Positions 49,281 to 52,200 of a DNA stretch of 64,000 nt are shown one piece after another (the stretch's first letter is position 1; the number at the start of each line of letters is the position of its first letter). Under the pieces are notes generated by a model. It was not told the origin of the DNA. It saw only the letters and a list, made by a program, of their open reading frames with translations, and did not search any database. Location of the stretch: assembly GCF_056712565.1 (NCBI RefSeq), contig NZ_CM160072.1; one strand, written 5' to 3'. The position numbers and the translations under genes are program-made.

Positions 49281-52200
49281 ATGGACAAGGAATTACCGTG
49301 GCTGGCGGATAACGCCCAACTGGAACTTAAATATAAAAAAGGCAAAACACCACTCAGCCATCGCAATTGGCCAGGCGAACCGGTGCCTGTTATCACTGAA
49401 AGCATCATTCAGACACTGAGTGATGAATTGCTACAAAAAGCAGAGAAGAAAAAAACATTGTCTGGCGTTATGAAAACTTTTCACTGGAGTGGCAGTCCGC
49501 CATCACGCAGGCCATCAACTTGATCGGCGAACACAAACCCTCAATCACGGCCCGGACAATGGCGGCGCTAGCCTGTATCGCGCAAAATGATAGCCAACAG
49601 TTGCTCGACGAAATCGTCCAACAAGAGGGGCTGGAATATGCAACTGAGGTGGTGATTGCACGCCAGTTTATTGTACGGTGTTATGAGAGTGATCCTCTGG
49701 TAGTAACATTGCAGTATCAGAACGAGGACTATGGCTATGGTTATCGCTCAGAAACCTATAACGAATTCGATCTCCGATTACGTAAGCATCTCTCTCTGGC
49801 AGAGGAAACCTGCTGGCAGCGTTGCGCCGACAAACTCATTGCCGCACTGCCAGGAATAACCAAAGTTCGCCGCCCTTTTATTGCTCTGAACCTCCCGGAA
49901 AAACCCGAAATCGCCAACGAGCTGGTAAGCCTTGAATGTTCGCAAACTCATTTTCGCTCAAAAGAGTGGTTAAAAGTTGTTGCTGATGACCCTAAGGCGG
50001 TGAAAGAACTCGCACGTTACTGGAGCCAGGATATATTTAGCGATCGAGAAGCCAGCTACATGTCGCATGAAAACCACTTCGGCTACGCGGCCTGCGCTGC
50101 CCTTTTGCGCGAACAAGGACTGGCAGCCGTTCCGCGCCTCGCGATGTATGCACATAAAGAAGATTGCGGCAGTCTGCTGGTACAAATTAACCATCCGCAA
50201 GTCATCCGCACCTTGCTACTGGTGGCTGATAAAAACAAACCCAGCCTGCAACGTGTGGCTAAATACAGTAAAAACTTCCCCCATGCGACGCTCGCCGCAC
50301 TGGCAGAACTGCTGGCGTTAAAAGCCCCCCCTGCGCGCCCTGGTTATCCCATCATCGAAGACAAAAAGCTGCCTGCACAGCAAAAAGCACGTGATGAATA
50401 CTGGCATACGCTGTTACAAACGCTGATGGCATCGCAGCCACAACTGGCAGAAGAGGTGATGCCGTGCTTAAGTACACAAGCCCAGGCAGTGGTGAATGGT
50501 TATTTATCGGCATCGCCAAAACTTGCTTTCGAGAGTACTCATAGCAACGACCTGCCAGAAATACTTGTTTCTCCACCGTGGCGAGGTAAGAAAAAAACGG
50601 CATTGCTGCGCCTTGATTTAGTGCCTCTTGAATTAGCGCCCAAAGCCCGCTGGCAACCAGGCGAACGAGAGAGACTTGCCGCCACAGAGTCTGCCCGTTA
50701 TTTCAGCACGGGATCTTTTACGGAACGCATGGAACGAAAAAGTGGTCGAGTTGTACTACAGGAGCTAGGTTTTGGGGATGATGTATGGCTGTTCCGGAAT
50801 TATATACTGCCCGGCAAACTGGATGCGGCGCGCAAATCATTAGTGGGTCAGTGGCATTACTCCCCGCGCAGAGTAGAGGAAATCAACAATGGCTGGCACT
50901 CCACGGAAGCAAAATCAGCCGAACAGGCGCTTCGTTCCGGCGACGTTGAAGCGTTAATTAACACCTGGGAAAATGATAGCTACTCACGTTATCGTCCGGA
51001 AAAGAGTGTCTGGAACCTGTATTTATTGGCACAGTTGCCGCGTGAGATGGCTTTGACTTTCTGGCTGCGTATCAATGAGAAAAAGCATCTGTTCGCGGGT
51101 GAGGACTATTTTCTCAGTATCCTCGGGTTGGATACATTACCTGGCCTGTTATTGGCTTTTTCACATCATCCAAAAGAAACATTTCCGTTAATTTTAAATT
51201 TCGGCGCAACAGAACTGGCCCTGCCCGTTGCCCGCGTCTGGCGACGTTTCGCGGCGCAGCGTGATCTGGCTCGCCAGTGGATTTTACAATGGCCGGAACA
51301 TACGGCTACTGCACTTATCCCTCTTGTCTTTACAAAACCCTGCGATAATAGCGAAGCTGCATTACTTGCCCTGCGTTTACTGTATGAACAAGGGCATGGC
51401 GAATTACTGCAAACCGTGGCAAACCGCTGGCAGCGTACAGATGTATGGCCTGCCCTGGAGCAATTACTTAAACTGGGTCCAATAGAAATTTACCCGGCAC
51501 GTATTCCAAAAGCTCCTGATTTCTGGCATCCGGCAATGTGGTCCAGGCCGCGCCTTATCAAGAATAATCAGCCTGTTACCGATGACGCTCTGGAAATTAT
51601 CGGCGAAATGCTGCGCTTTACCCAGGGCGGACGTTTTTATGGCGGACTGGAACAGCTGAAAACGTTTTGCCAGCCGCAAACGCTGGCAGCTTTTGCCTGG
51701 GATCTTTTCACCGCGTGGCAACAAGCTGGTGCTCCCGCAAAAGACAACTGGGCATTTCTGGCGTTAAGTCTCTTTGGCGACGAAAGCACGGCACGGGATC
51801 TGACGACACAGATCCTCGCCTGGCCACAAGAGGGCAAATCTGCCCGTGCTGTCAGTGGTCTGAATATACTTACTAAGATGAATAATGATATGGCACTGAT
51901 ACAGCTGCATCATATATCGCAACGGGCGAAATCCCGCCCCTTACGTGATAACGCGGCGGAATTTCTTCAGGTGGTCGCAGAAAATCGCGGGCTAAGCCAG
52001 GAAGAGTTAGCGGACAGATTAGTCCCAACACTGGGTCTTGATGATCCGCAGGCGTTGATTTTTGATTTTGGTCCACGGCAATTTACCGTTCGCTTCGATG
52101 AAAACCTCAACCCGGTTATCTTTGATCAGCAAAACGTTCGCCAGAAAAGCGTTCCCCGGTTGCGCGCCGATGACGATCAACTGAAAACCCCCGAGGCACT

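Follow-up and report, generated by a model that had tools for sequence, protein, structure and literature searches.

The 64,000-nucleotide stretch of Escherichia coli DNA described here (NCBI RefSeq assembly GCF_056712565.1, contig NZ_CM160072.1; hereafter the window) carries the yeh cluster in the order molR-like, yehI, yehK, zorO-orzO, yehL (AAA_5, MoxR-like), yehM (DUF5682), yehP (VWA_CoxE), and yehQ (SWIM). It is a chromosome segment of the sequence type 95 (ST95) kind of extraintestinal pathogenic and avian pathogenic E. coli (ExPEC and APEC) and is nearly identical to APEC O1, HS13-1, and ZJ3920. The gene yehI is interrupted near its 5′ end by a homopolymer of seven A (A7; 49449–49455, + strand), which corresponds to a 1-bp deletion as compared to the in-frame A8 of most E. 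coli. The site reads GCAGAGAAG-AAAAAAA-CATTG, with G at 49448, and the run spans yehI codons 56–59, where the in-frame A8 reading is GAG AAG AAA AAA AAC (E K K K N). An earlier reading of this DNA (the original prediction) had recognised the run and a switch of the yehI frame by −1 at it; both are borne out, but the coordinates given, 49448–49454, lie one base too far to the left. Two open reading frames (ORFs) represent the gene. The 5′ ORF (49281–49523, + strand) starts with ATG, has 80 codons, namely, 58 native residues and 22 out-of-frame ones, and ends with ...AEKKKTLSGVMKTFHWSGSPPSRRPST* at a premature TGA stop (49521–49523). The remainder (49520–52912, + strand) consists of 1130 codons in the −1 frame and is otherwise without lesion.

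The addition of one A in silico gives a YehI of 1210 amino acids with no internal stop, which reads ...AEKKKNIVWRYENFSLEWQ... across the site, exactly the read-through peptide that had been expected from an eighth A. The restored gene is 3633 nt long, equal to yehI of K-12 and of strain 1105. Its product contains, according to Pfam, DUF4132 alone (PF13569, residues 954–1138, E=1.5e-46); the corresponding DNA, obtained by conversion of the residue numbers, is 52139–52693 on the + strand, and it is lost through the frameshift. An alignment to the MolR-like paralog upstream (38% identity across 221 amino acids, E=1e-42) includes the SLEWQ block, again as predicted. Between the restored ST95 yehI and K-12 yehI, dN/dS is 0.19, and the gene is otherwise under constraint across the species. 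The same comparison over 49281–52912 yields a dS of 0.23 and 104 amino acid differences out of 1210. This divergence is seemingly high for a chromosomal gene of E. coli, a judgement made without comparison to other genes, and suggests either that the allelic lineages are old or that the yeh region has recombined.

An A7 run as such is nothing unusual, and the window holds 27 homopolymers of at least seven bases. The missing A is the sole single-base indel in the 12.6 kb compared between the window and its A8 relative strain 1105, and at the site itself strain 1105, UTI89, S88, and DSM 30083 differ from the window in nothing but A8 in place of A7. The tract was genotyped by counting exact matches to an 86-mer centred on it, separately for each haplotype, and species-wide frequencies obtained in this way are lower bounds. 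The A7 86-mer is present in 29 complete, independently assembled RefSeq genomes, including APEC O1, IHE3034, UM146, IMT5155, SF-468, ExPEC XM, and PU-1, whereas the A8 86-mer with the same flanks is found in 102, including UTI89, S88, NU14, APEC O18, and DSM 30083. The comparison with yehI of related genomes, which the original prediction had proposed, gives a clear picture: relatives from the same sub-clade have A7, while UTI89, S88, and DSM 30083 have A8 and an intact gene. The NCBI annotation pipeline (PGAP) follows this division, as it labels yehI “frameshifted” in ZJ3920, Z0117EC0054, APEC O1, IHE3034, SF-468, and others and intact in the A8 relatives UTI89, S88, DSM 30083, APEC O18, and strain 1105.

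The inheritance of the allele is best followed with a single-nucleotide polymorphism (SNP) at 54086. The window has C at this position; T is found in the outgroups, strain 1105 and K-12, and C is therefore derived. Among the matches listed, 17 complete genomes carry 54086 C, and all 17 are A7, APEC O1 and SF-468 included. These genomes were produced by many laboratories over many years, from human, turkey, chicken, duck, swine, and dog sources, with China, the USA, and South Korea among the named countries. At the closest range, the window and Z0117EC0054 are separated by 2 SNPs in 33 kb; a further SNP at 49084, near the 3′ end of the MolR-like gene, is common to these two only among the genomes compared. 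Among public assemblies from NCBI, ENA, and Logan, no fewer than 1000 contigs encode the exact 80-amino-acid product. Since A7 tracks an SNP-defined derived clade across laboratories and years, a miscall in the window is very unlikely.

The history of the tract within ST95 was examined in an alignment of 35–40 kb around it, comprising the window and 12 ST95 genomes and containing about 20 variable sites. Two groups, here named X and Y, are separated within ST95 by one SNP on either side of the tract (30149 and 63281) and by the length of an A-run at 41303. In group X, A7 is carried by the window, APEC O1, SF-468, and 10035004-3, all with 54086 C, and A8 by DSM 30083 and S88, both with 31945 A. 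In group Y, A7 occurs in IMT5155, E19035, and 729_021014, which form a clade with four private SNPs, and also in UM146 and IHE3034, whereas UTI89 and APEC O18 have A8. Thus both groups contain both tract states, four combinations in all, and the tract has changed more than once. The IMT5155-type clade, marked by 58515 T, is itself mixed (18 complete genomes, 7 A7 versus 11 non-A7), and five further A7 genomes, UM146, IHE3034, E18055, EC69, and AH21H025, fall outside both marked clades. A8 prevails in ST95 and is shared by all outgroups, so the most parsimonious reading of these markers is that the A8-to-A7 change took place in ST95 independently on at least two, and probably three, occasions. 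One origin of A7 for the whole of ST95 was rejected, because it conflicts with the concordant flanking markers 30149 and 63281 and with the mixed state of the 58515 T clade.

Other homopolymers of the region also vary. The A7 run of the yehD-yehE spacer (41303–41309) has a different length in each ST95 group, in a phylogenetically consistent manner. The A8 run at 36304–36311, beside a terminator-like GC stem, is shortened in UM146 only, and in IMT5155 a C inserted after the A7 run at 41186–41192 results in a yehD frameshift.

Beyond ST95, variation of the yehI tract is widespread. The 80-amino-acid product belongs to a 90%-identity cluster of 136 members; all those read are 80 amino acids long and lie on different haplotypes. 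The −1 product is encoded on other backgrounds by 712 contigs (ENIIQTLG type), 462 (B2 “G”), 414 (Shigella flexneri), and 305 (HRKW type), among others. With regard to complete genomes, the B2 “G” haplotype has 9 with A7, NRG 857C and APEC O2-211 among them, and the K-12-type haplotype has 38; the latter belong to scattered, unrelated strains, one of them being an assembly of MG1655. Products predicted for +1/−2 tract changes are found on several backgrounds, in 221, 85, 63, 38, 35, 32, 20, and 17 contigs. In strain A31, an AAG-to-AAA change lengthens the tract, which is A10 where A11 would be in frame. The in-frame A8 is the majority state on every haplotype examined. The yehI A-tract is a recurrent slippage/indel hotspot, which agrees with the reported dependence of the indel rate on homopolymer run length (PMC8510543); the supplements of that mutation-accumulation paper contain no entry for yehI. 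In conserved Escherichia genes, intragenic homopolymers are mostly of 6 nt and reach a maximum of 8, and homopolymer tracts are positively linked to pseudogenes in this genus (PMC8928963).

A useful control is provided by yehQ, which has an A8 run on the same strand as yehI and 9.4 kb downstream (58861–58868; GAA AAA AAA GAA, within TEKKEEE). This run is intact in the window. With identical flanks, 5 complete genomes have A7, and therefore a frameshifted yehQ, versus 324 with A8. The five genomes, IMT5155, UM146, SCU-115, Q5, and A1.S1.65, are scattered singletons that define a background of about 1.5%, made up of real tip mutations and assembly errors. This background may be comparable to that of yehI on the “G” and K-12 haplotypes, where only A7 genomes were counted. 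At yehI, 29 A7 genomes stand against 102 A8 on the ST95 haplotype, whereas the 9 and 38 A7 genomes mentioned above come from two much larger haplotype sets. The ST95 excess of A7 at yehI probably reflects clade fixation and not a larger number of events. The A7 events of ST95 sit deeper in the tree and are inherited by clades, which indicates that the loss of yehI is tolerated.

Taken as a whole, the allele very probably represents a genuine, vertically inherited A8-to-A7 deletion of 1 bp that arose by slippage, and yehI is a lineage-specific pseudogene. The original prediction had offered a genuine, slippage-prone inactivation as one of its two options, and this option is the one upheld, with A7 inherited by whole clades and the tract varying recurrently (A7, +1/−2) on many haplotypes. 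The most likely sequence of events begins with replication slippage in the poly-A tract at codons 56–59, which would have deleted one A. The frame shifts after Lys58 and translation stops 22 codons on, so that about 1150 of the 1210 residues, including DUF4132, are not made and yehI is a pseudogene in this strain. The allele is fixed in the ST95-type ExPEC/APEC sub-clade to which the window belongs, and the same deletion has occurred independently elsewhere in ST95, in other E. coli, and in Shigella. This recurrence can be attributed to the length of A8, near the upper end for homopolymers of conserved Escherichia genes, and to the tolerance of yehI loss. The deletion is inherited, recurrent, and stable within clades, and its effect on fitness is presumed to be neutral or nearly neutral. 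The region as a whole appears dispensable, given that the reduced-genome strain DGF-298 is viable without molR through yehQ (PMC10652928) and that a blaCTX-M-15 transposon disrupts the metG/DUF4132/yeh region in 184 ST131 isolates (PMC9334617). In comparison with the known homopolymer-slippage pseudogenes of E. coli and Shigella (“frameshifted” in PGAP), yehI shows the same 1-bp run change, premature stop, and clonal inheritance and differs in nothing essential; its additional features are the homoplasy inside one clonal complex and a run, A8, at the upper length limit.

Several points weigh against this interpretation. The complete loss of YehI function is something we infer, and A7 in this particular isolate rests on descent, not on a read pile-up. 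Some of the A7 singletons elsewhere may be assembly errors, in which case independent events may have been overcounted. In this regard, homopolymer deletions at 36304 and 53951 are private to UM146, and a C insertion at 41192 is private to IMT5155; each of these two strains also has A7 in yehQ (58861), and at yehI A7 is seen in one assembly of MG1655. The phylogenetic argument is built on about 20 variable sites in 35–40 kb and not on a whole-genome tree. Short gene-conversion patches between ST95 strains may also lie behind the four-gamete pattern.

A first alternative accepts the deletion as real and differs in its cause, proposing that inactivation of yehI is positively selected in ExPEC/APEC and that the poly-A tract is simply the easiest route to it. 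The parallel, clade-fixed A7 events of ST95 fit such an adaptive loss, as do the contrast with the equally mutable yehQ tract, where A7 exists only as scattered singletons, the common occurrence of A7 on other B2 haplotypes and in Shigella flexneri, and the transposon disruption of the region in a successful ST131 branch (PMC9334617). Nonetheless, three events among about 130 genomes are within what hotspot mutation together with drift or hitch-hiking can produce, and the contrast of the two tracts is accounted for equally well if yehI and yehQ differ in constraint. Moreover, A8 is kept by most ST95 genomes (102/131) and by most E. coli overall, and no phenotype is known for yehI loss. Adaptive loss is for these reasons considered unlikely. 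A more elaborate version, in which the tract acts as a slow evolutionary switch, is quite improbable: repeated adaptive A8-to-A7 loss in ExPEC/APEC would be accompanied by occasional reversion, or by low-level −1 slippage keeping a trickle of YehI, and would tune the yeh DUF4132/MoxR/VWA/SWIM cluster.

Classical phase variation, in which a contingency tract would switch yehI on and off reversibly at high frequency, had been mentioned as a possibility in the original prediction, and it is very unlikely. The tract is indeed located inside the coding region, with A8 as the ON state and A7 and the +1/−2 variants as OFF; −1 and +1 length variants both occur on several backgrounds, at least two to three tract changes took place inside one clonal complex, and on one haplotype the tract was lengthened to A11, with A10 seen. 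Conversely, the clade of the window is A7 in 17 of 17 genomes despite its spread over hosts and countries. Repeated samples agree as well: three isolates of strain 729 are all A7, the O1:K1:H7 APEC isolates E16002 and E18006, whose names suggest different years, are both A7, and the type strain, maintained separately as DSM 30083 and JCM 20135, is A8 in both stocks. The yehQ control has a similar scatter of A7 singletons (5 versus 324), which suggests no exceptional instability of the yehI tract, and no reversion from A7 to A8 need be invoked, because A8 is the ST95 majority (102 versus 29). In mismatch-repair-proficient E. coli, the slippage rate of A7/A8 tracts is lower by orders of magnitude than that of established contingency tracts. 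Fast switching at yehI is thus unsupported, and with a clade-fixed allele, concordant repeat isolates and stocks, and the yehQ background, phase variation in the usual sense finds no support. The likeness to slipped-strand contingency loci, such as the poly-C of Bordetella bvgS and the poly-G/C tracts of Campylobacter, Neisseria, and Haemophilus, consists in an intragenic run whose length toggles the frame and in the presence of both ON and OFF alleles in the population. Unlike those loci, the yehI tract is short and made of A:T pairs, its alleles are stable over whole clades, no rapid reversible switching is seen, and YehI has no known surface-exposed or host-interaction role; furthermore, the yehQ control tract behaves similarly.

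The A7 allele might still be expressed by recoding, either through ribosomes slipping by −1 on G AAA AAA C or through transcriptional slippage adding an A, with AEKKKNIV as the result, or by reinitiation at the TTG that overlaps the stop (TTGA, 49520–49523), which would give an N-terminally truncated YehI. Taken together, these routes are highly improbable. A −1 shift on the run does yield the wild-type peptide, and TTG 49520, the first possible start of the remainder, does overlap the stop of the 5′ ORF. Poly-A runs support low-level slippage in E. coli, and in endosymbionts, poly(A) frameshifts are rescued by transcriptional slippage; seven A are, however, few for efficient transcriptional slippage. 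In the zero frame, AAG AAA AAA ACA presents G AAA AAA, with a mismatched X position, so that there is no canonical X XXY YYZ heptamer. No downstream stimulatory structure was found in the 90 nt at 49456–49545 (−18 kcal/mol, z = 0.39, 132 of 200 shuffles folding at least as well), and no clear Shine-Dalgarno sequence precedes TTG 49520. Nor is the out-of-frame arrangement conserved: A8, which is in frame, is both the commonest and the ancestral state. Programmed frameshifting was rejected on the grounds of the missing structure and of this lack of conservation, and any rescued YehI product would be expected to reach a few percent at most. The closest parallels are the A-rich slippery sites of dnaX (A AAA AAG, −1) and the poly(A) rescue of Buchnera and Blochmannia, which yehI resembles in that a −1 shift or an added A on its run would regenerate the native protein; yehI differs from them in its run of only 7 A, in an ancestral gene that is in frame, and in having neither a stimulatory structure nor a conserved out-of-frame arrangement.

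A homopolymer sequencing or assembly error, the other option of the original prediction, would mean a true A8 and an intact yehI and is scarcely credible: although A7/A8 miscalls are a classic fault of long reads and pyrosequencing, and the private homopolymer indels of UM146 and IMT5155 and the A7 of one MG1655 assembly may be of this kind, the absence of any further single-base indel in 12.6 kb against strain 1105, the mere 2 SNPs in 33 kb against Z0117EC0054, and above all the concordance of A7 with 54086 C in 17 of 17 complete genomes and the truncated product on at least 1000 contigs effectively rule it out as the cause.

With the A7 allele accepted as an inherited pseudogene, yehI in this strain should be annotated as such and not “corrected” to A8. 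The combination of A7 and 54086 C is a convenient marker of one ST95 sub-clade, whereas the homoplasic tract itself should be masked or handled carefully in SNP/indel phylogenies and genome-wide association studies. The frameshift is already flagged in RefSeq annotation and is an ordinary kind of gene decay; its practical value is small and it raises no new biological question. A literature search on yehI/DUF4132 and on the yehI frameshift, part of whose results were mostly noise, retrieved no paper describing the A7 allele.

The lesion is one more example of the different decay of the yeh DUF4132/MoxR/VWA/SWIM cluster across E. coli lineages. Immediately upstream of yehI, the MolR-like paralog (45483–49271, + strand) is intact, with 1262 amino acids and WGR and DUF4132 domains in Pfam. 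In K-12, it is this paralog, molR, that is a pseudogene, with a frameshift and an internal stop, and not yehI. The K-12 molR pseudogene (yehH region) belongs to the same cluster and DUF4132 family and is frameshift-inactivated in one lineage, as yehI is here; the gene and the lesions are different, the paralog of the window being intact and yehI broken. It has also been reported that yehL and yehM are de-repressed in K-12 hns/stpA mutants (PMC3686432). The cluster decays in lineage-specific ways, and this behavior fits a dispensable, H-NS-silenced accessory system. An assignment to defence systems was dropped, as PADLOC returned no defence-model match for six proteins of the cluster.

Further lesions are present downstream of yehI. 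At the start of yehM (55164–55200), a 7-bp deletion leaves the direct repeat CGGCATC once instead of twice, about 20 nt into the gene, with the junction GTCGGCATCATAG at 55186. The junction is found exactly in 129 complete genomes, A7 and A8 ST95 strains alike. Older PGAP versions label yehM “frameshifted”, whereas newer ones report it as intact (WP_000273277.1). The ATG at 55164, 4 nt upstream, reads MYERAVNC-RHHSPAC... and keeps a yehM ORF of 758 amino acids to 57440, so that YehM may survive with a replaced N-terminus of 8 residues. The idea that yehI decayed because yehM was already dead in ST95 was abandoned on account of this ORF. In yehK (52973–53290), a 1-bp deletion relative to K-12 is located at about 53147–53160 (GACCCGCTAA to GACCACTAA). 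Both ST95 genomes and strain 1105 have yehK flagged as “frameshifted”, and the yehK lesion is therefore older than that of yehI. The yehK-yehL spacer contains a ZorO-like toxin ORF (53549–53638, − strand; 29 amino acids, MDTLTQKLTVLIAVLELLVALLRLIDLLK) and the OrzO-P antitoxin small RNA (53884–53957, + strand; Rfam RF02083, 91.5 bits), which together make up a predicted zor-orz type I toxin-antitoxin locus. A zor-orz locus lies between yehI and yehL in most E. coli, MG1655 excepted (Fozo et al. 2010, PMC2887945), and the window agrees with this arrangement.

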